Assembly: GCA_040219255.1 (NCBI GenBank)
Contig: JAVJSW010000049.1
Coordinates: 58,067 to 122,066 of the forward strand
Source of the DNA: Sumerlaeia bacterium
GTDB lineage: Bacteria; Sumerlaeota; Sumerlaeia; SLMS01; JAHLLQ01
Length of the DNA stretch: 64,000 nucleotides
Reading direction: 5' to 3'
Part shown: positions 7,221 to 39,333 of the stretch, piece after piece
Numbering within the stretch: position 1 is the first letter of the stretch
Layout of the letters: the number at the start of each line of letters is the position of its first letter
Translations under genes and position numbers: made by a program
Notes under the pieces: model-generated
The model's input: only the letters and a program-made list of their open reading frames with translations
The model's database searches: none
What the model was told of the DNA's origin: nothing

Positions 7221-9470
7221 TTAGTAGCGGGTTTCCGACGGCGGGGGCAGGACCGGCTGCGAAGGACGGGCGCCACCGCCTCCATCGGTCGGCGAAGGCC
7301 GGCGGGTTTCTTCCTCGCGGTCCCTTTCCGAACCGGGTTCGGCGGGGCGGTCCTGACCGCCACGGGTGCGGACGGGAGCCTCGCCGCCGCCGCCGCGATT
7401 GCCACCGCCACCGCCAATGGAGGCGCTGCCGCCGGTCGCCTGCGGCCGGAAGTTCGAATCGCGGCCCGCGCCGGCGGCCGGCTGGCGCACTTCGCGGGTC
7501 ACGCCCAACTGCTCGAGTTCGCCCGCCACCCCGGCGCCTTCCGCGCCAGACATCAAGTCCGACGGATCGAAATCGAAGTCCCCAGCCTCGATGTCCTCCA
7601 GGCTGATGTCTTCATCCGCGGCGGGCGCATAGCTCTCCGTGTTCTCCGCATAGTTCGTCACCATGCGGCCCCGTCGGCCGTCTTCGTTGATCTGGCGGGG
7701 GATGGTGTCTTCCACGATGGTCGGGGTGATGAAGATTTGGAGTTGAGTTCTATTGGTCGTGGTGGAGCGCGAACCGAAAACCGGCCCCACAACGGGCAGG
7801 CTCGAAAGGAATGGCAAGCCGCCGTTTGTCTCCGCGTCCGAGTTCGTGATCAAACCACCGATCACGCGCGTCTGTCCCGAGGGAATCGTCAAGATCGTTT
7901 CCAGCGTTTGCGTATCGCTTCGGATCAGAGTGAATTCCTCGCCGTCAGCCAACCGAGTGACCGGCTGGGCATCGTCGTTGTCGATCTGCAAGTCCAGCTC
8001 GATCAGATAGCTGTTGGAAATCGAGGGGGTCACTTCGAAAGTCAAACCGTCGCGCACCGTCTGCTGGGTTTGTGTGCGGAAATTGTTCACGTTGTTTGTA
8101 TCGGTGATCGTCGAAAGGAACGGTTCCTCCGAACCGACGCGAATTCGCGAGGCTTCCTGATTCTTCACCAGCAGGCGCGGCTGGAGAAGAGTCTTCGTGT
8201 TGGTGTCTTCAAAGGAGGCTTGATACTCGATGAAAGCTTCGTCGCCCAAGTAAGCGCCAGCAAGCTGGTTGCCGCTCAGCGCCAGGTAAGGAAAGGTCGA
8301 CGCCAATTCCCGGAATCCCATGCCGTCATCGTCATCATCGATGGTTCCGACGGGATTTCGGGGACCAACCCGCGTGCCAGCCGCGTCCGGTGGATTGATA
8401 AACGGATCGCCCGAGATCGCAGCCTGCTGAAGCCCGATGTTGAAGCCACGATTGAACGTCGTCTGCAAGATCTCGGCTTGGATCAGCACCTGCTTCACCG
8501 GACGGTCGAAACCAGCCAGGATCTGCTCCACGCGCTCGTGGACCTCGGGCACGTCTTCCAGGATGAAGACACCCTGCTTGTCATTGATTTCAAACAGCAG
8601 GTCCGGCGTGCGGATGGTCTCGATGATCTCCTGCAACTGCTCCAGGTCCTCGCCGTCGATGCCGATGTTGTTCACATCGTAGATGACGATTTCCGGACCC
8701 ACGTCCAGGATGTCGATCAGCAGCTCCATCTTCTTGATGTTGCTCAGCAGGTCCGTCACAATGATCTGGTGGGTTTTCGGGTCCACCTCGATGGTACCCG
8801 GGTCGCTCTTGTAGGTTTCGATTTTCTGGGCGATGTCCTCCACGTCGGCGTAGCGCAGGTAGAAGACGCGGGTAAAGAGCTGGACGTCGATTTCACGGAT
8901 CAGGCGCTCGATGCGCTCGATCACGTCGGGCAGATCGCTGACGATGATTTTGTTCGTGCGGTTGTCGCTCGTGATGCTGCCGATGTCGCGGGTCAGGGCG
9001 GGTCGGATCGCCTGCTCCAACTCCGCCGCGTTCACATGATCGGGGCGGAAAATCTTCGTGATGACTTTGTTCGGCAGGATATTCTGGCGGTACCATTGCT
9101 CATCGGCGATGCCGAATGTGCCGTCGTCCTGCTTGAACCACACCAGATTGTTCGGCGTGGCAAGACTCGTCAGTGCTTCCTCCAGGGTGGCGTCCGGTTT
9201 GAAAATCGAGACCCGCTGGCCAACCGCGCGGCCAAAGGCCGAGATGCTGGTGTCGGCCTGATTCCCGAGGACCTGCAGCACGATTTCGATCTTGGCGTCG
9301 TTGAACACCGCCTTCACTTTGCGGTCGCCGGGGTTTTCGGCCATTTCCTGGGCCCGGGCGGTGCCCGGCAGGCCGAGGGCCGCCGCCACCAGCAACGCCC
9401 ACAGCACCGGCCACAGGGCCGCGGCGGGGCGGGAGAGGATTGAACGAAGGGGGGTGATCAACGTGGTCAT
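7221..9470 (-). CDS. Secretin (GspD/PilQ family outer-membrane channel) with multiple N-domains and a Gly/Arg-rich C-terminal tail.
   Basis: ORF 7221..9632; Met55 begins a signal peptide (MTTLITPLRSILSRPAAALWPVLWALLVAAALGLPGTARAQE). Several NolW-like N-domains (RVFYLRYADVEDIAQKI...IIVTD). Secretin C-domain signature GGLPFLSSLPVVGPVFGSRSTTTNRTQLQIFITPTIVED. The last ~70 aa are GGGGNRGGGG / RD-rich. Confidence 0.85.
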   Translation of the reverse strand: MTTLITPLRSILSRPAAALWPVLWALLVAAALGLPGTARAQEMAENPGDRKVKAVFNDAKIEIVLQVLGNQADTSISAFGRAVGQRVSIFKPDATLEEALTSLATPNNLVWFKQDDGTFGIADEQWYRQNILPNKVITKIFRPDHVNAAELEQAIRPALTRDIGSITSDNRTNKIIVSDLPDVIERIERLIREIDVQLFTRVFYLRYADVEDIAQKIETYKSDPGTIEVDPKTHQIIVTDLLSNIKKMELLIDILDVGPEIVIYDVNNIGIDGEDLEQLQEIIETIRTPDLLFEINDKQGVFILEDVPEVHERVEQILAGFDRPVKQVLIQAEILQTTFNRGFNIGLQQAAISGDPFINPPDAAGTRVGPRNPVGTIDDDDDGMGFRELASTFPYLALSGNQLAGAYLGDEAFIEYQASFEDTNTKTLLQPRLLVKNQEASRIRVGSEEPFLSTITDTNNVNNFRTQTQQTVRDGLTFEVTPSISNSYLIELDLQIDNDDAQPVTRLADGEEFTLIRSDTQTLETILTIPSGQTRVIGGLITNSDAETNGGLPFLSSLPVVGPVFGSRSTTTNRTQLQIFITPTIVEDTIPRQINEDGRRGRMVTNYAENTESYAPAADEDISLEDIEAGDFDFDPSDLMSGAEGAGVAGELEQLGVTREVRQPAAGAGRDSNFRPQATGGSASIGGGGGNRGGGGEAPVRTRGGQDRPAEPGSERDREEETRRPSPTDGGGGARPSQPVLPPPSETRY

Positions 9471-9641
9471 GAGTCTCGGGGGCTCCATGGCTCCGGGTTC
9501 GGGTCGCGTCGCGTGGTTGGTTTCAACCGGTTCGCACCTGAGGCAGGGTTTCAGGCTTTCGCCGATCATGAGGCGAGGTGTCACGCGGAAAGTTCCAGCG
9601 GCAAAGGGAGAGTGCTCAGGCGGGGTCTTCAAAACGGGGGC

Positions 9642-10574
9642 TCAATTCACGGGGAGGGGTTGGTCGAGGGTTTGGATGAGGGCGGTGATGTTTTCCAACT
9701 CTTCGATAGAATAGGCATGAACGATCAATTTTCGTTTTTCATCCAGCGCGGTGGCATCCACACTGTCGGGAGCCGAGATAGACAAAATGGCTCGAGCCAG
9801 GTCCGAAGGTTTCTCATGTTCAAGGCGGAAGACGCGGATCGGTCCTCCATGGACGCAGAATTGATGTCGTTGAAACCACATGTTCGTGGAAACATGATAT
9901 CCACGCTCCTCGCAACCTAACCACCTCCAATCATGTGGAGCGCACAAGGTGTCGAGGGCTCCTTGCAAGGTTTCCGTGGTCAGAACCAAATTCACATGGA
10001 CGTCGGCTTTTGCCAAGTGACCTATAGGACGAATGTCCGTTGCATAACGATTGGAAAGTATCTCGAGTACATCCCTCAACGGAACCTTTCGAAGGATCGT
10101 CAATTTCGATGCGATCTCCGGCGTCAACACACGTCCAGGGCCAGAACTCTCGTAGAGTGATTTCAATTCTTCCGGTGACGGTAGGTCGGCTGCCCCACTT
10201 CGCCGTCTGCTCTCAATCCACGTTCGATCGGAATAGAAGTATCCGCCATAGAAGTTCTTCTCCCAACTCCCATCGGTCTGGTCGGCGAGAAGAGACAGCA
10301 CGCTTTCGAGCGCGGGGGTCGTGAGCTGGTCCTCGGACTCGAGCGAGAAACTAACCGGCAGCGTCAACTCGACCAGTCCCGAAGGGCAGACGCTGATCCC
10401 AGATGCTTTCGATAGAATCGCCAAAGCCTCACGAACCGGCACATCACGATACACCGTCCGCGAAGTCACGGCTTCCTCTCTGATTGGCGAAGAGATCGCC
10501 CGACCCGCAGGCGCCCCGGCTAAAGCCAATGGCGCCAACGAAAGACAAAGGTAAAGTAGAGCTGGTCGGAACAT
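9642..10574 (-). CDS. Periplasmic protein built of secretin-N-terminal-like modules (STN-like + NolW-like), no secretin pore domain; putative secretin partner.
   Basis: Signal peptide MFRPALLYLCLSLAPLALAG. VPVREALAILSKASGISV (STN-like). IRVFRLEHEKPSDLARAILSI...LIVHAYSIEELENITALIQTLD (NolW-like alpha/beta module). The 3' two-thirds of the gene is noticeably lower in GC than the 5' third. Confidence 0.6.
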   Translation of the reverse strand: MFRPALLYLCLSLAPLALAGAPAGRAISSPIREEAVTSRTVYRDVPVREALAILSKASGISVCPSGLVELTLPVSFSLESEDQLTTPALESVLSLLADQTDGSWEKNFYGGYFYSDRTWIESRRRSGAADLPSPEELKSLYESSGPGRVLTPEIASKLTILRKVPLRDVLEILSNRYATDIRPIGHLAKADVHVNLVLTTETLQGALDTLCAPHDWRWLGCEERGYHVSTNMWFQRHQFCVHGGPIRVFRLEHEKPSDLARAILSISAPDSVDATALDEKRKLIVHAYSIEELENITALIQTLDQPLPVN

Positions 10575-10644
10575 CGGTCACGCTCGCGAAGAGGAGGTAT
10601 GCGGGAGTCCGGGAGGGCCAAACGCGGGCCAACTCCACCGCCCC

Positions 10645-11208
10645 CTACGACGGCGCCGCGGCCGCTTCCCCCACGTCCTCCTCCACCGCCAGATCCAACG
10701 CCTCCACCACCGGCTTCAGCCGCTGCAAAACCCGCCGCTCATCGTAGATCAGCAGGCGGTTGCCCTCCTCGTCCACGACGATGCGGCCGTGGGCGCGCGA
10801 GAGGTGCGGGGCGATGAGCGGAATCAGTTCGCTGGCGGGGCGGTGCTCGAGCTGGAGCACCATCGGCCGGGGGCGGTCGCCCAGCATTTCGCGGTCGTAA
10901 AACGCATGGTCGCAGAGGACGAAATCGCCTCCGTCCCGCCGGAACCACACCCATTCGTTTTTCGCCGCGATTTCCGAGAGGGCGTTCTCCAGCGTCGAAC
11001 TCGTCGCCCGCAGGCTCACCCGCGCCGCCGTCACTTCACCCTCCGCCACGATCCGTTCGCGAAAACCATAGCCCAACGCCGTCAGCACCACCGTGGCGGG
11101 CGCGTCATGGAACGCCAGCGTGATCGGCCGGCTCGTGGCGATGTCCGCCGAACCCGCGCACGCGGGCGACACAAGGAGGCTGAGAAGAGCAAGCACCACA
11201 TACCGCAT
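10645..11208 (-). CDS. Small periplasmic protein with secretin-N-domain-like fold (STN/NolW-like), first gene of the secretin operon.
   Basis: Signal peptide MRYVVLALLSLLVSPACAGSA. ITLAFHDAPATVVLTALG (STN-like). MVLQLEHRPASELIPLIAPHLS..GRIVVDEEGNRLLIYDERRVLQRLKPVVEALD (NolW-like). 70-nt gap to the next gene on the same strand. Confidence 0.55.
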   Translation of the reverse strand: MRYVVLALLSLLVSPACAGSADIATSRPITLAFHDAPATVVLTALGYGFRERIVAEGEVTAARVSLRATSSTLENALSEIAAKNEWVWFRRDGGDFVLCDHAFYDREMLGDRPRPMVLQLEHRPASELIPLIAPHLSRAHGRIVVDEEGNRLLIYDERRVLQRLKPVVEALDLAVEEDVGEAAAAPS

Positions 11209-17109: not shown

Positions 17110-17335
17110 AGCGGCGGGACACTAGGCAGAGGGGGGCTGTCCAGGCAACGGGCAAAGTGGAGTCTTTCTGTGGTTTTTCTCGGTCGCCGCGAAAGCGTTC
17201 TCAGCGCCTTTGAATACCGCCCCCACCAGGGCGGTAGGGGCTGCGGCTTTGCCAAGCCCGACTGAAGGATTGCGCCCCGCTTCGCCGCGTGCCAATTCCT
17301 TGTCCCATCCCGCCGAGGAAGGAGCCCGCCGCGCC

Positions 17336-17902
17336 GTGGCTGATTCCGCTAAAGTCTTCGCGATCGAACGACCGCACGTGAACCTCATCAAGCTCTACAT
17401 TCTGCGGTCCTGCATCCTGCCGCCGTTGAGTTTCATCGGCTTGCCGCTGCTCTATTTCCGCTACCACACCATGCGCTATCGTTTCGACGACGAGGGCATC
17501 GGCATGAAGTGGGGCATCCTGTTCCGCCGCGAGGTCAACCTGACCTACGCCCGTATCCAGGACATCCACATCACCGCCGGGCCCGTGCAGCGCTGGCTCG
17601 GCCTCGCCGACATCCACATCCAGACCGCCTCCGGCAGCGCGGCGGCGGAAATGACCATCGAGGGCCTGCAGGAGTTCGAGGAAATCCGCGACTTCCTCTA
17701 TGAGAAAATGCGCGGCGTGAAGGACGAGAAGAAAGCCCGCGCCGCCGGGGAGCTGCCCGGGGCGGCGGCAGGAGCGGCCGCGGCGCCGGGGATGTCTCCG
17801 GCCGAGAGTACCCAGCTCGTCACGGCACTCGCTGAAGTCCGCGACGAACTGCGCGGAGCCCGCGCGGCGCTCGAGCGCCTCGCCCCTGGCGGGGAGGGAT
17901 AA
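17336..17902 (+). CDS. bPH_2 (YdbS/YdbT-like bacterial PH domain) membrane protein.
   Basis: ORF 17210..17902. The N-terminal 42 aa of the ATG-initiated frame are low-complexity, so a GTG start at 17336 (VADSAKVFAIERPHVNLIKLYILRS...) is more plausible; the true start is uncertain. TM hairpin then PH-like YFRYHTMRYRFDDEGIGMKWGILFRREVNLTYARIQDIHITAGPVQRWLGLADIHIQTAS. Confidence 0.6.
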   Translation: MADSAKVFAIERPHVNLIKLYILRSCILPPLSFIGLPLLYFRYHTMRYRFDDEGIGMKWGILFRREVNLTYARIQDIHITAGPVQRWLGLADIHIQTASGSAAAEMTIEGLQEFEEIRDFLYEKMRGVKDEKKARAAGELPGAAAGAAAAPGMSPAESTQLVTALAEVRDELRGARAALERLAPGGEG

Positions 17903-17905
17903 GCC

Positions 17906-18739
17906 ATGTACAGTCTCCTCAAAGCCCCCATCCTGAAAATCCTCAAGGTTCCGCCCGAGCCCGAGGACCCCTTTGGCAACAGCCGCAGCCTGAAAGTCTT
18001 TCGCGCCGCGGAAGGCTATTTCCACTACAAACTCATCACCTTCCTCATCGGACAGCTTTTCGCCTTCATCGGCCTCGTGGTCGGTGTCGTGATTTTCTTC
18101 ATCGCGGTGTCCTCGGAAATCCAGGACCCGACTCTGCGCACGATCGTTCTCGTGATCGAGGTCGGCGCCGTCCTGTTCTTTTTCCTCCAGTTGCTCTTGA
18201 ATCTGGCGTTGCTTCGGCTCGAATACGAACTGCGCTGGTATAAGATCACGGACCGCAGTTTGCGTATCCGCGAGGGCGTCTGGAGCGTGCGGGAAATGAC
18301 CATGTCCTTCGCCAACATCCAAAACATCTCGATCAGCCAGGGGCCGCTCCAGCGGCTCTTCAAGATCGCCGACCTCAAGGTCCAAAGCGCCGGCGGCGGC
18401 GGCGTGGTGGAAGCCCAGCAGGCCCAGCAGTCGGGCGCCGTGAACATGCACCTCGGCTATTTCCGCGGCGTGGACAACGCCGAGGAAATCCGCGACCTGA
18501 TGCGCGAGCGCCTGCGCCGCCTGCGCGACTCCGGCCTGGGCGATCATGACGAATCGGCCGACGAAGTCCCCGCGGATGTGACGCCCCCCACGCAGCCATC
18601 GCTCCAGATGCTCGACGGCACGGATTGGCAGGGACTCCTGGCGGACCTGCGCGGCGAGGCCAAAGCCTTCCGCGCCGCCGCCGAGCGCCTCTCCTCCGCA
18701 CCGCGACAATCCAACGGCGGGACAACCGAAACCTCTTGA
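17906..18739 (+). CDS. bPH_2 (YdbT-like) membrane protein, second of the pair.
   Basis: Starts 4 nt after the previous stop. TM segments (LITFLIGQLFAFIGLVVGVVIFFIAV), then YKITDRSLRIREGVWSVREMTMSFANIQNISISQGPLQRLFKIADLKVQSAGG (bPH_2 pattern). Confidence 0.7.
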   Translation: MYSLLKAPILKILKVPPEPEDPFGNSRSLKVFRAAEGYFHYKLITFLIGQLFAFIGLVVGVVIFFIAVSSEIQDPTLRTIVLVIEVGAVLFFFLQLLLNLALLRLEYELRWYKITDRSLRIREGVWSVREMTMSFANIQNISISQGPLQRLFKIADLKVQSAGGGGVVEAQQAQQSGAVNMHLGYFRGVDNAEEIRDLMRERLRRLRDSGLGDHDESADEVPADVTPPTQPSLQMLDGTDWQGLLADLRGEAKAFRAAAERLSSAPRQSNGGTTETS

Positions 18740-20071: not shown

Positions 20072-21283
20072 ATGACAACTTCTGAAAATTCAACGCCCCC
20101 CGCCTTCGATTGGCGGGGCCGCAATGTCGTCTGCTTTTCCACCGCCGACTGGGACACGCTCTTGCCCACGAACAAGCACCACCTGATGCGGCGGCTGGCG
20201 GCGCGCGGGGCGAGGGTGCTGTTCCTGGAAACGCTCGGGACCCGGGCGCCGAGACTTGCCTCCGGCGTGGATCTGGCCCGCATCGGCCGACGCCTGGGCC
20301 GCGCCGCCAAGGGCCCGCAGAAGCGCGAAAACCGCCTCTACAGCCTCTCGCCCCTCGTGCGGCCCCGCTGGGCCAATCCGGTGGACCGGGCGTTGAACCG
20401 CGCCGCCTTCCTGGCCCAGGCCGGGCCGTCGCTCCGCCGGATGCCCGATGCCATTGCCTGGATCTATTCGCCTTACGCGATCTATCTCCTGGACCAGGTC
20501 AAGCCCGCCAAGGTTGTCTATCACATGGTGGACGACTTGACGGCGGTGCCCGGCGCGGATCGCGACGCGATGGCCGAGGCCGAGCGGGCGCTGCTGCGAC
20601 GGGCGGATTGTGTGTTCTGTACCGAGCGCTCGCTCCACGCGCGGGCTCTGCGCGAAAACCCGCGGGCGCTCTATATGCCCAACGTCGCGGATTTTGCCCA
20701 TTTTTCCGAACCCCGCACCATGAGCCCGAACGATGAGCGCCTGCGCCGCCTCCGCGAGATGGACGGCCCAAAGCTCGTCTTCAGCGGCCACATCACGCCC
20801 CATAAGACCGACCTGGAGTTGTTGGAGGTTCTCGCCCGCGAGCGCCCCGCCTGGCACTTCGTCCTCATCGGCCCCGTCTGGGAAGGCGCCGAACGCCCCG
20901 CCGCGCTCCAGGCCCTGGAGGGCCTGCCCAACGTCCAGTTCTTCGGCCATGTGGACTACGCGGACCTGCCCGCCTACCTGCACGAGGCCGGCGTGCTGAT
21001 GATTCCCTACTCCGACACGCCCGCCACCCGCGCCGTTTTTCCGCTCAAGTTCTTCGAATACCTCGCCACGGGCCGACCGGTCGTCGTTTCGCCCCTGCCG
21101 TCGCTCAGCGAATACGCCGCCCTCGTCCCCATGGCGCACGCCCCGACGGCGTGGCTGGAGACACTGGAGCGGGTGCTCTCCGAGCCTGGCGAGGGCGCGC
21201 CGCAACGCATCGCCCTCGCGTGCGAGAACACCTGGGACACCCGTCTGCTCCAAATGGAGCGGGCGCTCACCCAGATTTCTTAG
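20072..21283 (+). CDS. Glycosyltransferase, GT-B fold (GT1/GT4-like).
   Basis: C-terminal nucleotide-sugar binding block LVFSGHITPHKTDLELL....VQFFGHVDYADLPAYLHEAGVLMIPYS....FPLKFFEYLATGRPVV (E-x7-E-like). Confidence 0.8.
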   Translation: MTTSENSTPPAFDWRGRNVVCFSTADWDTLLPTNKHHLMRRLAARGARVLFLETLGTRAPRLASGVDLARIGRRLGRAAKGPQKRENRLYSLSPLVRPRWANPVDRALNRAAFLAQAGPSLRRMPDAIAWIYSPYAIYLLDQVKPAKVVYHMVDDLTAVPGADRDAMAEAERALLRRADCVFCTERSLHARALRENPRALYMPNVADFAHFSEPRTMSPNDERLRRLREMDGPKLVFSGHITPHKTDLELLEVLARERPAWHFVLIGPVWEGAERPAALQALEGLPNVQFFGHVDYADLPAYLHEAGVLMIPYSDTPATRAVFPLKFFEYLATGRPVVVSPLPSLSEYAALVPMAHAPTAWLETLERVLSEPGEGAPQRIALACENTWDTRLLQMERALTQIS

Positions 21284-21293
21284 GCGGCTTCGC

Positions 21294-23099
21294 TCAGTCC
21301 AACTCGTCCAGATCCAAATCCTCCAGCGGCCGTTTCGGCGGCCTCGCTGGCGGAGGCGGCGGAGGCGGCGGCGGCTGAGCCGAAGGGTTCGTTTCGCCCT
21401 TCGTCGTCCCCGGAGGCGCGCCCCCCGGTGTGTCGAAGATGCGGTACTTGATTTCCGTGGAAGGCCGTTGCTGAGGCCCCTGCGGCGCGGCCGGCGGCGG
21501 CGCGGGACCCGACCCGCCGGTCGGTTTCGGCGGCATCGCGGGCCGGGGCTGAGCACCCGGATCGTTGCGGGGCGCCTGCGGACGCGGAGGCAGGGGCACG
21601 TTCTCAGCGCCATGGGGCGGCGGCGGCGCGCCCAGCGACACTGCGAATTGCTGCACCGGCGTGTTGACCGGTGCGCGCGGGGGCTGGGCGGGACGTCCAG
21701 AAACCGGCGGAGCCCCCTCTCCCGGCGAGGTGTCGCCCCCGCCGTGGGAGGCCGCGTCCATCATCGCCTGCAGATTGCGTTGCGAACGTTGCGCCGGCGG
21801 ACGCGGTGCCCGGTCCGTATCCCGCTCCTTGCGGCCCCGGGGGCGAGCCAGGGGAACCTTCAACCTCTCCGGATCGATGCTCAGCGGCGGCACGCCTTCG
21901 TTCGAATAGGTGATTTCCAGACCGCTCCCGAACTTGCTGGCGAGACTGATGCGTTGCGGAACCTCGAAATCGCCCTCGATCGTTTCCCACGGATCGTCCA
22001 GGTTGGTCCATTCCGACCCCGTGGTGACACCGATGCCGCGAAACTTCATCTGCAAATCGTCCGCGCTGTCCGCCGCGTTCAACGCGTCGTCGAGCGTGAT
22101 CTGGCCCTGCTTCACCAGGCGGTACAGCGCCAGGTCGAAGCTCTGGATTCCATAGCTGTTCTCCGCCTGAAGGGCTTCCTTGAGTTCCGACATGTCTCCC
22201 TTGCGGATCATCGCGGAGATGTGAGGCGCGTTCACCAGCACCTCGACCGCCGCCACACGGCCGCCGTTGGTGCGGGGCACCAGGCGCTGGCAAATGATCG
22301 CCCTCAGGTTCAGCGACATCTGAAGGTAAATCTGCTCCTTCGCGCTTCCCGGATAGAACCCCGGAATGCGCTCCACCGCCAACAGCGCGTTCGTCGAGTG
22401 CAGCGTCGCCATCACCAGGTGGCCCGTCTCCGCCGCGTGCATGGCGAAACGCACCGACTCCTCGTCGCGCATTTCACCGATACAGATGACCTCCGGCGCC
22501 TGACGCAGACTGCTCCGCATCGCCTGATGAAAGGAATCGGTGTCGATGCCCACCTCCCGCTGCGTGATGATGCAGCGCCGGTGCTGGAATACGTACTCGA
22601 CCGGATCCTCGATGGTGACGATGTGCCCGGGCAGGATGTGGTTGCGGTAGTCGATCAGCGACGCCATCGTCGTCGATTTGCCCGACCCCGTGGACCCAGT
22701 GACGATCACGATGCCCCGGTCGCCGAGGGAAATCTCGCGCAACACCGGCGGCAGCCCGAGCTGGCGCATCGTCGGCACGCTCATGGAAACCCGCCGCATC
22801 ACGATGCCGATCGAACCGCGCTGCCAGTAAACGCTCACCCGGAAGCGTCCGATCTTCGGGTCCATGTACGACAGGTTCGCTTCGCGCTCGCGCTCGAAAT
22901 CCTCCCATTGATCCACCGACATCAATTGCCGCGCGAAATCCTCCAGCGTGAACGGATCGATCCGCAGGCCCTTCGAGGTCTGCATCGGGTAGTAGCCGCC
23001 GTCGCAGGAAATGCAGGGAACCGCCCCAGCCACGAAGTAAATGTCGGACGCGCCCGCCTCGGTCGCTTCGCTCAGAAAGTCTTCCAGTTTTGCCGTCAC
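21294..23099 (-). CDS. pilT: Type IV pilus retraction ATPase PilT/PilU family, with ~230-aa proline-rich C-terminal extension.
   Basis: Walker A GSTGSGKST. Asp box and Walker B VICIGEMRDEESV. His box AAETGHLVMATLHSTNA. The N-terminal 370 aa are collinear with PilT. The remaining residues are Pro/Gly/Gln-rich low complexity ending PPPPPPPPPARPPKRPLEDLDLDELD. Confidence 0.9.
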   Translation of the reverse strand: MTAKLEDFLSEATEAGASDIYFVAGAVPCISCDGGYYPMQTSKGLRIDPFTLEDFARQLMSVDQWEDFEREREANLSYMDPKIGRFRVSVYWQRGSIGIVMRRVSMSVPTMRQLGLPPVLREISLGDRGIVIVTGSTGSGKSTTMASLIDYRNHILPGHIVTIEDPVEYVFQHRRCIITQREVGIDTDSFHQAMRSSLRQAPEVICIGEMRDEESVRFAMHAAETGHLVMATLHSTNALLAVERIPGFYPGSAKEQIYLQMSLNLRAIICQRLVPRTNGGRVAAVEVLVNAPHISAMIRKGDMSELKEALQAENSYGIQSFDLALYRLVKQGQITLDDALNAADSADDLQMKFRGIGVTTGSEWTNLDDPWETIEGDFEVPQRISLASKFGSGLEITYSNEGVPPLSIDPERLKVPLARPRGRKERDTDRAPRPPAQRSQRNLQAMMDAASHGGGDTSPGEGAPPVSGRPAQPPRAPVNTPVQQFAVSLGAPPPPHGAENVPLPPRPQAPRNDPGAQPRPAMPPKPTGGSGPAPPPAAPQGPQQRPSTEIKYRIFDTPGGAPPGTTKGETNPSAQPPPPPPPPPARPPKRPLEDLDLDELD

Positions 23100-23222
23100 A
23101 AATGCGATTTCCCAATGAGTCTTGGATTTCGATCACTACGGACTAATAGAAATAGGCACCCGAAGACCGCGTTGCAAGGACAGAAAGGGAGCCCATCCAT
23201 CCAAAATCTCCGGCCACCCGCC

Positions 23223-24374
23223 TCACAGCACCCGCAGCTCTTTCGGCGACTTCGAAAGCACCCGGCAGCCCCCCTCTTCCACCACCACCAGATCCTCGAT
23301 GCGCACGCCGCCGAATCCCGGGACGTAGATCCCCGGCTCGATCGTCATCACATTCCCCGGCACCAGCTTCACATCCTCATTCGTATCAGCGCTGAAGCGC
23401 GGAGACTCATGAATCTCCATCCCCACCGCATGGCCCAGCCCGTGGTTGAAATCCGGGAACCCGTGGCTCTTTACGATCTCGCGCGCCATGGCGTCCAATT
23501 CGCGGCAAATCGCCCCGGCGCGGCAGGCCTTGATCACGGCCTCGTTGGCGTCCAGACACGCCGCGTACATCTTCTCGTAGTCCCTGCTGGCCTTGCCGAT
23601 CACCGGGTTGCGCGTCAGATCCGAGCAATACCCATCCACCACCGCCCCCAAGTCCACCGTCACCATATCGCCCTTCTTCATCTTGCGCTTGCCCGGCGAG
23701 TGATGCGGCCGCGAGGCGTTCGGCCCGCTCGCCACGATGTTGGTAAAGGACTCGCCCCGCACGCCCAAATCCTCGGCGGCGCGCCGAATGGCCAGGCTGA
23801 CTTCCCACTCGCGCACGCCCGAGCGGATGTTTTGAAAAGCCACCTCCATCATCTGGTCCGCGACTTTGGCCGCTTTGCGGATGGCCTTGATTTCCCCCGC
23901 GTCCTTGACCTGGCGCAATTCCTCCACCTGCCCGCTGACCTTCGCCAGCTTCGTCTTGGCGCCGGTGGTGCGCTCCTTCAGCTTATCGAAAGCATCGACG
24001 GACAGCGAACCCTCAAAGCCCAACTTCCCGTATCCCAGGTCTTTGAACAGGTCCTTGAAGAATTCGTCCTTGCCGCCCTTCGGTTCGGCCACGATCCGGG
24101 CGCTCGAACCACTCTCGGCCAGCAAACCCTCCGCGATTTCCCAGTACCGCCCATCGGTCACCAGCCGCGCCGCCTCGCCATCCACGATCAGCAGGCCGTG
24201 GCTCCCCGCGAAGCCCGTCAGGTAATTGATATTGACGAGGTTCTGGATCAGCAGAGCGTCCACCTCGGCGGCGCGGATGCGCTCGCGCAGGCGCTCGAGC
24301 CGCTGCTCGACGACCGGCTTCCCGGCAGCGGTGGGGTCGGTCTTGGCGGTTTTCTTCGACGATTTCTTAGCCAT
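23223..24374 (-). CDS. Xaa-Pro aminopeptidase / M24B family metallopeptidase (creatinase N-domain + pita-bread fold).
   Basis: ORF 23223..25535. The true start MAKKSSKK at 24374 is frame-consistent; the upstream extension is Arg/Gly-rich junk. Metal ligands appear in context: DMVTVDLGAVVDGYCSDLTR, HGLGHAVGMEIHE, MTIEPGIY, GVRIEDLVVV. Confidence 0.85.
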   Translation of the reverse strand: MAKKSSKKTAKTDPTAAGKPVVEQRLERLRERIRAAEVDALLIQNLVNINYLTGFAGSHGLLIVDGEAARLVTDGRYWEIAEGLLAESGSSARIVAEPKGGKDEFFKDLFKDLGYGKLGFEGSLSVDAFDKLKERTTGAKTKLAKVSGQVEELRQVKDAGEIKAIRKAAKVADQMMEVAFQNIRSGVREWEVSLAIRRAAEDLGVRGESFTNIVASGPNASRPHHSPGKRKMKKGDMVTVDLGAVVDGYCSDLTRNPVIGKASRDYEKMYAACLDANEAVIKACRAGAICRELDAMAREIVKSHGFPDFNHGLGHAVGMEIHESPRFSADTNEDVKLVPGNVMTIEPGIYVPGFGGVRIEDLVVVEEGGCRVLSKSPKELRVL

Positions 24375-24536
24375 CGGTTCCTTGCTCCCGGAAAAAGCTG
24401 GGGCCGCATTGAACAGGATTTTCCGCCGCCCGGCACAAGTTGAATCGCGGCGCGCGATTGACCGCTTGCCATCGCTCCGGCAGCCCCCGCACTCTGCCCC
24501 GTCCCTTCGCGCCCTAGGAAAGGCCCCCCCACCGCC

Positions 24537-31315: not shown

Positions 31316-33070
31316 TCAGCCATGGCACAAGTCTCTCCTTTTCAAAGGTTTTTGGCCGGGGCGAGGAGCGTGATGGAGGCTTTCGGCTTCGAAATCGGAC
31401 CCGCTCCCTCGGCGCTGTGCCGAACGTTGGGCGAGGGCGGCGGCCCCGGCGGCGGCGTCGAGCGCGTCGTCGTGGGCGGTGCGGGGAAAGCGCGCCAGTT
31501 CCTCCCAGAACTCTTCCGGCAGGGTCTCGCCCAGCACCAGGCGGCCATTCGCCAGCAGCGGCTCCAGGGCGGCGATGCGGGCTTCTTTGCGGCGCGTGGG
31601 TTTGACGACTTCGATGACGAGATCGGCTCCAGGAAGGCCCTCGGCGCCGCGGCGCCGGCGCTCCTCTTCGATGGGCAGGGTCAGCAGTTCCTGGAACCCG
31701 GTGCCTTCCACGGCGAGGCGCTCGAAGGGCAGCTCCTCGTGCATGGCGAAGAGGGCGGCGACCTGCTCGCTCGGTTTGGCGCGTTTGACCCAGAGGTCGA
31801 GGAGGATGAGGAGGCCGCCCTCGGCCACCGCGACGCGGGCGAGGGCGGCGAAGTCGCCTGTGCCTTGGGCGCGGCTCTTCCCAAGGGCCGAGTCGAGGAA
31901 GCCGAAGACGCGCAGGGGTCCCTCGACGCGGCGGGGAGGCTGGGCCGGGGCGCCGTGGCTGGCGGGCGGCAGGAGGTCGACGGCGCCGCCGGTGGCGGGG
32001 CGGGCGCGCCAGTAGCGCTCGGGTTCGAAGAGGGCGTCTTCGGGGCCGAGGGGCTGGTTCTGTTTCTCCTGATAGAAGGCGCGGCGGCCGTTGGCGATCA
32101 TCTGGGCCATGAGGTGCTCGATGTCTTCGTGCTCGGGCCAGAGGACGGCGGTTCCGGCCTCCATGGCGCGGCGGTGCTCGAGGAAGTATCCCCGGGCGGC
32201 GGCGCGGCGGCCGGGGGTGGCCGGGTCCGAGAGCAGGCGGCGCCATTCCTCCCACGCGGGCGAGGGCGGCGGGAAGGCCTGGACGGATGGCAGGACGAGG
32301 CCTTCGAAGTCCGGGCGCCCGATGAGCGCGGGCAGTAGTCCGGCGGGATGGAGGATCGTGCCGACGGCCAGCATATGGGTAGCTCCGTCGCCGAGGTGCT
32401 CGATGACCTCGGCGAACCAGTCGTGGGTCTTGGCGCGGCGCCGGGGCGAATCGGCGGCGGCGGTGGATTCGGCGTCGTCGAGGATGATTTTCGTGGGGCG
32501 CCAGCCGTCGTGGCTGATGCCGCGCATTTCGGCGCCACAGCCAAAGGCTTCGACGCGGACGCCGCCCACAACGAGGGCGCGTTCGGTGCTCTCGACGTTG
32601 GCACGGCCGCAGAGTTCGGGATAGAAGCGGGTGATGGCCCCCCGGCCCAGGAGTTCGGCGCGCAGGGCGGCGAGGCGCTGCTGGGCCTGGCGCTGGGTGG
32701 CGGAGACGAGGACGATGTAGCGCTCGCGGCGGTAGGCGAGGTCGTGGAGGACGAGGGCGAAGCTGGCGAGGGTGCTCTTGGCCGAACCGCGCGGAGCGGC
32801 CACGGCGAAGCGCAGCCCGGCGCGATCGGGAAAGGGGGGCTCGCCCATGCGCCGGTGCCAGGCGAAGAGCTGGCGGTGGAACGGCGCGAAGGGCAGGCGG
32901 GCGAAATCCGGCAGCGCCAGGCGGACGAAGAGCGGCAGGTCGGCGGCGGCGCGCTCGCGCAGGAGCGCCGGGTGCCGCCGCGGGTTAATCGTCTTCAGAA
33001 GCTGATGAAAGGTGGCCGGCGAGCAGGTCCGGACCCAGTTTTTCGAGGTGGGCGAGGAAGTCGTCATCAT
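31316..33070 (-). CDS. Phage terminase large subunit-like protein (ATPase + RNase-H-like nuclease).
   Basis: Walker A AAPRGSAKST. Walker B-like KIILDDAES. C-terminal nuclease-fold Asp residues in FGFLDSALGKS...GDFAALARV and ARFPRTAHDDALDAAAG, matching the TerL terminal-nuclease (terminase_6C / TIGR01630-like) pattern. Confidence 0.75.
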   Translation of the reverse strand: MMTTSSPTSKNWVRTCSPATFHQLLKTINPRRHPALLRERAAADLPLFVRLALPDFARLPFAPFHRQLFAWHRRMGEPPFPDRAGLRFAVAAPRGSAKSTLASFALVLHDLAYRRERYIVLVSATQRQAQQRLAALRAELLGRGAITRFYPELCGRANVESTERALVVGGVRVEAFGCGAEMRGISHDGWRPTKIILDDAESTAAADSPRRRAKTHDWFAEVIEHLGDGATHMLAVGTILHPAGLLPALIGRPDFEGLVLPSVQAFPPPSPAWEEWRRLLSDPATPGRRAAARGYFLEHRRAMEAGTAVLWPEHEDIEHLMAQMIANGRRAFYQEKQNQPLGPEDALFEPERYWRARPATGGAVDLLPPASHGAPAQPPRRVEGPLRVFGFLDSALGKSRAQGTGDFAALARVAVAEGGLLILLDLWVKRAKPSEQVAALFAMHEELPFERLAVEGTGFQELLTLPIEEERRRRGAEGLPGADLVIEVVKPTRRKEARIAALEPLLANGRLVLGETLPEEFWEELARFPRTAHDDALDAAAGAAALAQRSAQRRGSGSDFEAESLHHAPRPGQKPLKRRDLCHG

Positions 33071-35464: not shown

Positions 35465-35760
35465 AGGTGCAAAAAGGGCCGAGACGGCCGGAAAGGCAAG
35501 GGAAACAGAGAGGACGAGCGCTTGGCGGTTTTTTTTCGCCTGGGGTCTGGAGTGGCCAAAAACGAGCGGTAAGCTCTTGAATGATTCCTTAAATTTCCAG
35601 GTGATCCCGCCGGGATCGGTGTAGATTGCGTTTTTTGTACCGCTGGACTTGGTGATGTGAGTCTTTTCGACTTGCCGGTTCGTCCGTGAGTCCCTACATT
35701 TTCCTGTTCATTTTGAGAGAGTCGCCTCTCCAGAAGACCTGCTGCCAGGAAGGTTCCGAT

Positions 35761-38700
35761 ATGACATTGGGCAAACATCGAAACTCGGATTCCCACGCGC
35801 CAGGCGGGCCCGCATGGGCTGGGCTCTTGTTGACAGGTGCGCTGTTGATGGCGGCGGGAAGCGCCTGGGCGGCTCCACCGGCGAATTACTACGACACCGC
35901 CGACACCACTAACGGCACAACGCTGCGGTCGTCCCTGCACAATATCATCGATGGGCACACCGTCTATAGCTACACGGCGGCCTACGATATTATCGCCGAC
36001 GCGAACGAAGATCCGAACAATTCGAACAACACCATTTTATTTTATACTGGCCGCTCGACACCGAAAACCAACCAGGGCGGCAACGACAGCGACCCAGCCA
36101 CCGGCGGCTACAACCGCGAGCACATCTGGCCCCAGAGCGCCTTCAACGAAAACAGCCCGATGAAGTCCGACATGCACGCGCTGTTGCCCGCCGACGCGGA
36201 CGCCAATGGCCGCCGCAGCAACTATCCCTTCCACACGGTGACGACCTCGACCTACGAGTTCTTCGGCAACAAGGTCGACACGGACAACTTCGCCGCGGGC
36301 AACATCTTCGAACCCCGCGACGCCGTGAAGGGCGATGTGGCCCGCGCGCTGTTCTACATGGACGTGCGGTACGAGGGCGACAGCGGCGAGCCGAACCTGG
36401 CGCTGAGCAGCAGCGGCTATCCCACCGGCACCGGCAGCGCCCTGATGGGGTACCTGGACGAACTGCTGGCCTGGCATGCGGCGGATCCCGTCGATCAGTT
36501 CGAAATCGACCGCCACGAGTACATCTACGGTTTCCAGAACAACCGCAACCCGTTCATCGATCATCCGGAATGGGTGGATTGCGTTTACAACAACAATTGC
36601 AGCAACGACACGACCCCGCCCGATCCGCCCATGGGGCTGGCGGCGAATGGGGGCGATGGGTCGGTGTCGCTGACGTGGAATGCCAACAGCGAGGGCGACC
36701 TCGACGGCTACAACGTCTATCGCTCGACGACGATGGGCGGGCCCTATTCGCAGATCAACGGCGCCTTGGTTCCAGCGCCTTCCTACGTGGACAACACGGT
36801 CACCAACGGCGTGACGTATTACTATGTGGTGACGGCGGTCGATACGGCGAACAACGAGTCGAACGACAGCACGCCCGCCTCGGCGACGCCGGAAACCGGG
36901 CCGGGCCTGATCGTGGCGGGGCCGATGGCGGAACCGGCGACGATTTCGTCGCTGCGGACGACGGCCTTCGACGCGCCCTGGAATTTCGATGTAACCATCA
37001 TCGACGATCAGGCCAACCCCGGCGCCGACAGCGATCCGACGCTGATTTCGCAGATTGTCTTCACCCCCGGCACGGGCAACGACTTCGCGAATTGGACGAG
37101 CGTTCTGGCGGGGGCGCGGCTGACCGATGGCACCCACTCGGTTAATGGCACGGTCGGCGCGGCGGGGCTCACCTTCGCGCTGACGAACGGGCTCAACGAA
37201 ATCGGCCACATCGCGGACAACGGTACGAAGACCTATCAGTTGAAGGTCTGGCTGAAGGAAAGCGCCACCGGCGTGGACAACGGCAACCTGGTGTTCGCCC
37301 TGGCGAGTTCGGGCATCGCGACGGAAGCGGCCGGTTCCTCGACCGTTGGCAGCAGCTCGGCGGACAGCGGCTCGACGAACAACGCGATCGAGGTGGTGGC
37401 GACGGAGCTGCGCTTCGCCAGTCAACCGCCGGACACGATCGTCGCCACGGATTTCGCCGCCTCGGTCCACGCCACCGACAAGTACGGTCGCCGCGATACG
37501 GACGCTTCGGGAAACGTAACGCTGTCGCTGGACACGGTGAACGCGGGGATTCTCTCGGCGGCAGGCGGTCTGACAAAGGCCCTCGCAGCGGGCCTGGCGA
37601 GCTGGAGCGACCTGGAAATCGACACCGGCGAAGCCGGCGTGGGACTGCTGGCGAACGCTACGGGCTTTGCGGAGAAGCGCAGCGAGAGCTTTGACGTGCT
37701 GCCCTCGGGCGGCGGCTCCGGCACCCCGGTTTTCGTGAACGAGATTCACTATGACAACGATGGCGGCGACACTGGCGAGTTCATCGAAGTCGCCGGCCCG
37801 GCGGGAACCGATCTGAGCGGCTGGACCATCGTGCTCTACAATGGCTCGAGCAGCCTGAGGAGCCCTTACTCGCCCACCATGAATCTGTCGGGTACGATCC
37901 CGGACTCGACCGGCAACGGTTTCGGCTTCCTGAGCTTCTTCCAGGCCGGCATCCAGAACGGCGACCCGGACGGGCTGGCGCTGGTGGACGACTCGAACAC
38001 CCTCATCCAGTTCCTCAGCTACGATGGGTCCTTCGTCGCCGCCAGCGGCATCGCGGCGGGCCTGACCTCGGAAAACATCGGCGGCGAGCCCACCACTACG
38101 CCCATCGGCGAGAGCCTGCAACTGACCGGCACGGGCTCGGTGTACGAGGACTTCACCTGGGCCGCAAGCACCGCCACGAACACGGCGGGCGCGCTCAACG
38201 GCAGCCAAACGTTCCAGCCCGCGGGCGGAACACTGAACGCCAACGGCGTGCTGGAATTCGCCTCGGCCAGCCGCGCCGGGTCCGAGGACGGCGGCGCCAT
38301 CGTGGTGTCGGTGCTGCGGCTGGCGGGCACGGCGGGGGCCATTGCGGTGCCGTTCTCGGTCGGCGGCGCCAGTACCGCCTCGGGCGCGGACTACACGATC
38401 GCCACGGCCAGCCCGCTCAACTTCGCCGACAGCGACGACGTCCAATCCATCACCATCAACCCGGTGGTCGATTCGGATCACCTGGAGGGGGACGAGACGA
38501 TTGTCCTTCAGTTGGGCGCGCCCACTGGCGGAGCGGCGCTGGGCGCTCAGAGCGAAGTCGTGGTGACGCTGCTGGCCAGCGACCGCACCCTGATCCCCAG
38601 CGGCACGAACCCGCCGCCGCTGGAATTCGCCGAGGGTGTGCGGGCGACGGTGGACTTCAACGACGTGTCGGCCGCGGGCGCTGGCTTCGCCGCCAATCTC

Positions 38701-39333
38701 GTCAAGGACAACGCGGCCATCGTGGGTCTGTCGTCGAGCCTCGGCGTGTACTGGGATTTCACCGTCGAAACCGGATTCGCCTTCGGTGGCGAGGTGCTGG
38801 TGACGCTCGAATACCGCGACGGCGAGCTGAACGGCGTGGATGAGAACACGATGACGCTGGTGAAGGCCAACTCGCCGGCCGGACCCTGGCAGCCCGTACA
38901 GATCGTCGAACGCGACACCGTCAACAACACTATCTCCGCCATCGTCACCGGGTTTTCGACCTTTACGGCGACCAACGATACGGTGCTGTGGGTGGACCTG
39001 GTGGCTTTCGAGGCGGAGGATCTGGGTTCGGGCGGCGTGCGTGTGACCTGGGAAACGGCGGCGGAGGTCGATTCCCTCGGCTTCCACATCCACCGCGTGG
39101 CCCCCGATGGCGGGCTGGGCGGGCAAGTCACCTCTGGCCTCGTGCCGGCCACGGGCAGCCCCCTCGGCGGTGCGTTCTACGAAGTCCTGGACAGCGAAGC
39201 GTTGGCCACCGGAGAGAGCCGCGGGTACTTCCTGGTGGAGACGGAGACCTCTGGAAAGACAACCACTTACGGACCCATCACGGTATCCGCCGAAGCGCGC
39301 GAGAGCGCCGTGGAGGATTGGACGATCTTCTGA
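35761..39333 (+). CDS. Secreted multidomain nuclease: Endonuclease I (EndA/Dns family) + fibronectin-III + lamin-tail domain (LTD), 1191 aa.
   Basis: ORF 35686..39333; Met26 begins signal peptide (GPAWAGLLLTGALLMAAGSAWAAP). Endonuclease_1 motifs REHIWPQS and NRNPFIDHPEW. FN3 (SVSLTWNANSEGDLDGYNVYRS...YYYVVTAVD). LTD (FVNEIHYDNDGGDTGEFIEVAGPAGTDLSGWTIVLYNGSS). Confidence 0.85.
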   Translation: MTLGKHRNSDSHAPGGPAWAGLLLTGALLMAAGSAWAAPPANYYDTADTTNGTTLRSSLHNIIDGHTVYSYTAAYDIIADANEDPNNSNNTILFYTGRSTPKTNQGGNDSDPATGGYNREHIWPQSAFNENSPMKSDMHALLPADADANGRRSNYPFHTVTTSTYEFFGNKVDTDNFAAGNIFEPRDAVKGDVARALFYMDVRYEGDSGEPNLALSSSGYPTGTGSALMGYLDELLAWHAADPVDQFEIDRHEYIYGFQNNRNPFIDHPEWVDCVYNNNCSNDTTPPDPPMGLAANGGDGSVSLTWNANSEGDLDGYNVYRSTTMGGPYSQINGALVPAPSYVDNTVTNGVTYYYVVTAVDTANNESNDSTPASATPETGPGLIVAGPMAEPATISSLRTTAFDAPWNFDVTIIDDQANPGADSDPTLISQIVFTPGTGNDFANWTSVLAGARLTDGTHSVNGTVGAAGLTFALTNGLNEIGHIADNGTKTYQLKVWLKESATGVDNGNLVFALASSGIATEAAGSSTVGSSSADSGSTNNAIEVVATELRFASQPPDTIVATDFAASVHATDKYGRRDTDASGNVTLSLDTVNAGILSAAGGLTKALAAGLASWSDLEIDTGEAGVGLLANATGFAEKRSESFDVLPSGGGSGTPVFVNEIHYDNDGGDTGEFIEVAGPAGTDLSGWTIVLYNGSSSLRSPYSPTMNLSGTIPDSTGNGFGFLSFFQAGIQNGDPDGLALVDDSNTLIQFLSYDGSFVAASGIAAGLTSENIGGEPTTTPIGESLQLTGTGSVYEDFTWAASTATNTAGALNGSQTFQPAGGTLNANGVLEFASASRAGSEDGGAIVVSVLRLAGTAGAIAVPFSVGGASTASGADYTIATASPLNFADSDDVQSITINPVVDSDHLEGDETIVLQLGAPTGGAALGAQSEVVVTLLASDRTLIPSGTNPPPLEFAEGVRATVDFNDVSAAGAGFAANLVKDNAAIVGLSSSLGVYWDFTVETGFAFGGEVLVTLEYRDGELNGVDENTMTLVKANSPAGPWQPVQIVERDTVNNTISAIVTGFSTFTATNDTVLWVDLVAFEAEDLGSGGVRVTWETAAEVDSLGFHIHRVAPDGGLGGQVTSGLVPATGSPLGGAFYEVLDSEALATGESRGYFLVETETSGKTTTYGPITVSAEARESAVEDWTIF

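Follow-up and report, generated by a model that had tools for sequence, protein, structure and literature searches.

The stretch of DNA analyzed here (the window; 64,000 nucleotides of contig JAVJSW010000049.1, from a Sumerlaeia bacterium) carries on its reverse strand, at 21294-23099, an open reading frame (ORF) with a GTG start and a TGA stop (21294-21296), which encodes a 601-residue PilU-class type IVa pilus ATPase with a long C-terminal tail. NCBI annotates this protein, from a Sumerlaeia metagenome-assembled genome (MAG), merely as a PilT/PilU family ATPase, and an earlier note made from the sequence alone had described it as a PilT ATPase with a proline-rich extension. We confirmed that the protein has 601 residues and that its tail begins after a complete ATPase core, which extends to about residue 354.

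We examined the protein together with 50 relatives collected from NCBI, JGI, ENA and Logan (n = 51 with the query). The relatives are 455-616 residues long and 46-56% identical to the query over the alignment, and those bearing an organism name belong nearly all to Sumerlaeota. The ATPase core (residues 1-354; 22038-23099, reverse strand), delimited by Pfam T2SSE and by structure alignment, comprises an N-terminal domain and a RecA-like C-terminal domain. T2SSE was the sole Pfam domain of the whole protein (E = 9e-39), and the NCBIfam PilT/PilU model TIGR01420 scored 404.9 bits over residues 4-347, against a cutoff of 319.1 bits. The core contains a Walker A motif (GSTGSGKST, residues 135-143), an Asp box (IEDPVEY, 163-169), a Walker B motif (VICIGEMRD, 204-212) and a His box (TGHLVMATLHS, 225-235), and its catalytic residues are invariant in the family alignment. 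Solved PilU and PilT structures align to residues 4-355 of the query; among them, PilU of Pseudomonas aeruginosa (PaPilU, PA0396; PDB 9n32) matched residues 6-354 with 45% identity (E = 1.7e-98). AlphaFold2 (AF2) modelled the core mostly at a predicted local distance difference test score (pLDDT) above 90, and Foldseek gave template modelling (TM) scores of 0.92-0.93 to PilU 9n32 (0.93), PilT2 5fl3 and PilT4 6ok2.

We then compared the core with the PilU and PilT classes. Its best solved-structure match was PaPilU, at 334 bits, with P. aeruginosa PilT at 257 and Aquifex PilT at 291 bits. When scored against the two halves of P0002, a fused gammaproteobacterial PilT-PilU pair, each of the 51 family members preferred the PilU half; the margin averaged 72 bits and was never below 42 bits. 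At the position of the PilT motif AIRNLIRE, the query reads PHISAMIRKG (residues 292-301; 22197-22226, reverse strand), which is PilU-like; the family consensus there is TPRxxDLIxKG and PilU has xxxDLIRKG, while the fused pair shows PAIRNLIRE in its PilT half and SPLVSDLIRKG in its PilU half. The core also ends in the PilU-type manner, xSANDLxLK(F)R, as seen in the family alignment and by comparison with PaPilU. Within this ending, K352 is kept in at least 90% of the sequences, and R354 aligns, in the comparison with PaPilU, with the last lysine of PaPilU "...LMIK"; they are at most candidate counterparts of K348, the conserved basic residue at the end of the core of Vibrio cholerae PilU that forms a salt bridge to PilT. 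Because the protein is closer to PilU, lacks AIRNLIRE, and has both the PilU-like DLIxKG and the SANDL ending, its sequence identifies it as a genuine PilU-class ATPase, not a PilT-class one. The PilT identity given in the earlier note is thus replaced on the strength of the PaPilU score, the fused-pair scoring and the Foldseek comparison.

Two observations on fused proteins were made alongside this comparison. Many matches of 700-750 residues from Polyangiales, Lentisphaeraceae and Oligoflexia are apparently tandem fusions of two complete PilT-like ATPase cores, as read in one of them (P0049). The fused pair P0002, with AIRNLIRE in its PilT half, is a bacterial sequence filed under a firefly label (Abscondita terminalis), presumably as contamination and possibly as a fused gene call.

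Alignment to the solved structures stops at residue 355, and the tail is therefore taken as residues 355-601, a length of 247 residues (21297-22037, reverse strand). The earlier note had placed it at about 230 residues with a limit at 22000; the extension itself stands, and its boundary lies 12 codons further on. The same 601-residue protein is found at NCBI and, flanked by the same neighbors, in a Logan contig of independent assembly, and GC content at third codon positions (GC3) is 0.72-0.82 along the tail in the pilU frame. All 50 relatives continue in frame into a tail of their own, 103-261 residues long. Since the protein is identical in the independent assembly and the relatives all continue in frame, we exclude a frameshift as well as an open frame arisen by chance, and both the frameshift and the lack of conservation that the earlier note had named as dangers to its claim fall away. 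We conclude that the tail is in frame, conserved across the clade, and modular. Very long spurious ORFs do arise here owing to the high GC content (65-75%), so that ORF length alone is no evidence for a gene in the window; one of 991 residues (21468-24443, forward strand), antisense to pilU and the aminopeptidase gene beside it, is spurious.

The composition of the tail (Pro 23%, Gly 10%, Ala 9%, Arg 8%, Gln about 5%) agrees with its earlier description as rich in Pro and Gly, whereas Gln-richness was an overstatement. The label of low complexity does not fit, as the first ~50 residues of the tail are conserved and non-repetitive and are followed by a spacer and two short motifs. Directly after the last core helix lies an acidic segment with two tryptophans, which we call Motif A (GIGVTTGSEWTNLDDPWETIEGDFEVP, residues 355-381; 21957-22037, reverse strand). 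In the family alignment it follows the pattern G[IVM]G[IVL]xxGSSWEDxxDPWxxIxxD[YF]xxP, with G355, G357, W364 and W371 invariant in all 51 sequences, D369 and P381 kept in at least 90%, and a mean net charge of -5.9. AF2 gave residues 351-380 a pLDDT of 93-96 and modelled Motif A as ordered and non-helical, running on from the last core helix. About 17 variable residues separate Motif A from Motif B, YSNE (residues 398-401; 21897-21908, reverse strand; pLDDT 62-65), which in the family reads Y-x-N-E followed by a small residue and then P, Y398 and N400 being kept in at least 90% of the sequences.

The spacer beyond is Pro-rich and disordered (residues 413-545; 21465-21863, reverse strand), with 26% Pro, a net charge of +9 and a pLDDT mostly below 50; indeed, most of residues 413-570 fall below 50 and have no predicted secondary structure. 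In the relatives, the distance from Motif B to the tip varies from 46 to 206 residues, with a mean net charge of +4.7 and a Pro content of 7-48%. Alignment delimits a basic-aromatic Motif C, KYRIFDTPGG (residues 551-560; 21420-21449, reverse strand), whose pattern [RKH][YF][KR][IV][FY]xTPxP aligns in 16 sequences; a related motif, VV[DN]RY[KR][DE]MI, occurs in about 10 other relatives. The run of nine prolines reported earlier is present at residues 576-584 (21348-21374, reverse strand; pLDDT 65-67) and is encoded by mixed CCG, CCT and CCA codons. Because nine consecutive proline codons are expected to stall ribosomes without the elongation factor EF-P, expression of the distal tail may depend on EF-P.

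Likewise as reported, the protein ends in EDLDLDELD (residues 593-601; 21297-21323, reverse strand), an acidic-leucine tip marked out by its enrichment in the family. Tips of the [DE][LIFMV][DE] type are found in 28 of the 51 members, whereas 2000 shuffles of the tails gave 0.2 such tips on average and never more than 2, and among window ORFs of at least 80 residues such a tip is unique to the pilU product. Charge along the tail runs from acidic (-6) through basic (+5 to +14) to acidic again (-4 to -6). Tandem DNA repeats were considered as the origin of the tail and rejected; a GGC-type repeat at the proline run and a 15-bp near-repeat at the LDLD tip were all that was seen.

Searches of Pfam, NCBIfam and PDB sequences with the tail gave no match. 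A profile of Motifs A to B run against 1.84 billion representative proteins recovered only its own family, fragments of it, and three obviously spurious repeat proteins. When 185,579 species-representative genomes were scanned for the exact pattern, Sumerlaeota MAGs alone contained the motif. Homology of Motif A to the C-terminal extension of PaPilU was rejected, as no hidden Markov model (HMM) match was obtained even with filters off. A resemblance of Motif A (GSxWx6PW) to the TolB box of colicin E9 was also dismissed: an HMM score of -1.7 bits falls short of significance, and topology makes a target in the periplasm implausible. We found no literature describing this tail.

The genomic setting offers little on the partner of the tail. 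The neighbors named earlier were confirmed as a GT1-family glycosyltransferase gene (20072-21283, forward strand), convergent with pilU and separated from it by 10 bp, and, upstream of pilU, the gene for an M24 Xaa-Pro-type aminopeptidase (23223-24395, reverse strand), the latter being specific to this genome when compared with the related loci examined. No conserved gene neighborhood that could serve as a partner clue was found in these loci. The statement that no pilus gene is adjacent also holds: no second PilT-family gene was found in the 64-kb window or in 14 loci, and the secretin gene (7221-9632, reverse strand; 803 residues, Secretin and Secretin_N domains) lies ~11.7 kb away. Two small ORFs (9642-10574 and 10645-11208, reverse strand) precede the secretin gene, each with a Secretin_N-like domain alone, and no pilMNOP-like genes were recognized beside the secretin in this region (7221-11208).

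Elsewhere in the window, two neighboring genes (17210-18739, forward strand) each encode a membrane protein with a bacterial PH (bPH_2) domain. A 1215-residue protein (35686-39333, forward strand) combines an N-terminal Endonuclease I domain (E = 8e-50) with a Calx-beta domain, and may be a large nuclease of the cell surface or the extracellular space. A 584-residue ORF (31316-33070, reverse strand) with a sub-threshold match to Terminase_6C (terminase RNaseH-like; E = 7e-4) may be a prophage remnant.

Taken together, we read the protein as the PilU-class accessory retraction ATPase of a Sumerlaeota type IVa pilus, in which the C-terminal extension, usually of 20-30 residues, has grown to 247 and would serve as a PilT-docking and regulatory arm, a reading in which we place roughly even confidence. 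The extended C-terminus is unique to PilU as compared with PilT, has been modelled as wrapping the side of the PilT hexamer, and is required for retraction in V. cholerae, where K348 and the terminal residues D366/E368 of PilU form salt bridges to PilT, as validated in Acinetobacter baylyi (Teipen et al., 10.1101/2025.10.30.685630). Motif A sits where the canonical PilU C-terminus lies and is likewise acidic, and for these reasons it is most likely the PilT-docking or interface element. The distal spacer, Motif C and the tip would then form six flexible arms per hexamer, which could capture or regulate a partner, be it a PilT paralogue, the pilus base or a regulator, and the acidic tip may play the part taken in Vibrio PilU by its last acidic residues, which make contact with basic residues of PilT. 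As a PilU-class protein, it would be expected to stack on a PilT hexamer and to depend on it for function. As for PilT partners, the window itself has no pilT, and support comes at the level of the phylum, with 1-12 pilT genes per MAG (PMC8092238).

Several points weigh against this reading. No sequence similarity could be detected between Motif A and the C-terminal 32 residues of PaPilU or any PDB chain, and the high pLDDT of the motif already in the monomer model suggests that it packs in cis on its own core and need not reach PilT. The distal motifs are not universal: the tip is absent from 23 of the 51 family sequences and Motif C from many, and a single conserved partner for the tip is therefore doubtful. 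No pilT gene was found within 10 kb of pilU, either in the window or at the related loci that were examined. Myxococcus xanthus, furthermore, is still motile with most of the disordered region of its PilU removed (PMC13584747), and tails of this kind may accordingly be dispensable.

We considered what else the tail could do. It could be a regulatory or auto-inhibitory arm whose acidic tip and Motif A bind the basic spacer or the protein's own hexamer, gating ATPase activity or oligomer dynamics until a partner or signal releases them. The acidic tip of the single-stranded DNA-binding protein SSB folds back on its OB fold, and the acidic, basic, acidic charge order of the PilU tail is in keeping with such an arm; in M. 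xanthus, a frameshift that lengthens the disordered region of PilU abolishes function and truncation restores it, for which the authors proposed auto-inhibition (PMC13584747). We nevertheless regard this as unlikely here, as AF2 predicted no fold-back of the distal tail (pLDDT < 50) and the tip is missing in 45% of relatives. A second model, based on a Motif C-anchored alignment and made for docking of Motif C on the core, reached a mean pLDDT of 63 and was uninterpretable. A PilT-independent localization signal, whose distal motifs would bind a landmark at the pole or a scaffold of the cytoskeleton (a TPR-type carboxylate clamp holding the acidic C-terminus would be one candidate) and so concentrate PilU at pilus sites, would suit the position of the tip at the extreme C-terminus and its strong enrichment there, as well as the polar localization of M. 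xanthus PilU, which does not need PilT (PMC13584747). By analogy, the long variable spacer and terminal peptide would also resemble the linker and C-terminal peptide of FtsZ. On the other hand, no candidate receptor was found, no neighboring gene is conserved in the related loci examined, and the tip is not universal in the family, and we judge this role improbable.

It is also conceivable, at a decidedly low probability, that the protein is an orphan PilT-like ATPase which drives a machine other than type IVa pilus retraction and is adapted to it by the tail. In the window, as in those related loci that were examined, pilU stands alone, and the many PilB and PilT paralogues of Sumerlaeota (PMC8092238) suggest several type IV filament machines. 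Against this stand a core that scores 86 bits above the TIGR01420 cutoff and its PilU-specific signatures. Moreover, it is common for bacterial pilT and pilU genes to stand alone. The idea that the tail is an artefact, whether from a sequencing frameshift or from run-on through GC-rich non-coding DNA past a true stop near residues 370-410, draws on the abundance of long spurious ORFs in this 65-75% GC region, of which the 991-residue opposite-strand ORF is an example. It deserves next to no credence, given that an independent assembly encodes the identical product and that, in assemblies from many samples and sources, all 51 sequences have in-frame motifs directly behind the core and 28 of them also have one at the extreme C-terminus.

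The docking-arm reading touches a current question in pilus mechanics, namely how PilU is coupled to PilT, for which the short PilU C-terminus was shown to be the coupling element in 2025-2026. Type IV pilus genes are present in all Sumerlaeota MAGs (Fang et al. 2021, PMC8092238), and among 16 such MAGs each carries 1-12 pilT, 1-8 pilB and 0-1 pilU genes (PMC8092238 supplement). The pilB and pilT paralogues are thus unusually numerous beside at most one pilU, which prompts one to ask how a single PilU can serve so many motors. A bolder proposal, which we advance as a long shot, is that long disordered PilU tails evolved independently in at least two phyla (Myxococcota and Sumerlaeota) and that the lone Sumerlaeota PilU is a shared booster for several PilT/PilB machines, reaching them through six arms of ~200 residues with docking peptides (KYRIF and the acidic-leucine tip). 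If this were true, fly-casting recruitment would be a mechanism that has not been described for any type IV filament ATPase. The PilU tail of Sumerlaeota overturns no concept and is an exaggerated form of a known PilU feature. It does show that myxobacteria are not alone in having long PilU tails, Sumerlaeota being the second phylum, with a tail twice as long. The family also supplies 50 or more natural variants with defined motifs (two Trp, YxNE, basic-aromatic, acidic tip) that can be mutated or used as baits; motifs so sharply defined make the question of the partner of the PilU tail directly testable, and as the phylum is uncultured, such tests would have to be heterologous.

Finally, we compared the tail with known systems. 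In SSB and FtsZ, the folded oligomeric core carries a Pro/Gly/Gln-rich linker, variable in length and sequence, at whose end a short conserved peptide (acidic-hydrophobic in SSB) recruits partners. The likeness to these proteins is one of architecture only, a functional analogy between unrelated folds and processes for which we claim no homology, and it differs in that only about half of the Sumerlaeota family has the terminal peptide. The suggestion of a flexible tether or localization signal made in the earlier note is compatible with this anatomy.

The tail is not without precedent: PilU is defined by its C-terminal extension, and a long disordered one has been published for M. xanthus (PMC13584747). 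With the canonical PilU proteins of P. aeruginosa, V. cholerae and A. baylyi, the Sumerlaeota protein shares the core, the lack of AIRNLIRE, the xSANDLxL(K/R) ending and an acidic C-terminal extension. The canonical extension, however, is about 20-32 residues long (PaPilU: LGSESDADHLSSLTQGLSLEITDDDPAGRRFR) compared with 247 residues in the protein studied here, which adds the two-tryptophan module, the Pro-rich spacer, Motif C and the leucine/acidic tip; the extensions have no detectable sequence similarity, and the Sumerlaeota pilU gene, unlike the canonical one, is not next to pilT. The PilU of M. xanthus (MXAN_1995) has 468 residues, with a C-terminal disordered region of ~112 residues "only conserved in myxobacteria", and M. 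xanthus PilT is predicted to bind the PilU segment that precedes this region (J Bacteriol 2026, PMC13584747). It resembles the Sumerlaeota protein in being a PilU-class accessory retraction motor, in having a long disordered C-terminus behind the segment predicted to bind PilT, and in having its gene away from pilT; a regulatory or partner-binding role has been proposed for its disordered region, as we propose for the Sumerlaeota tail. The latter is more than twice as long and belongs to another phylum, the M. xanthus protein being compared here by its published description. Should the two tails be unrelated, such long extensions would have arisen on PilU twice or more.

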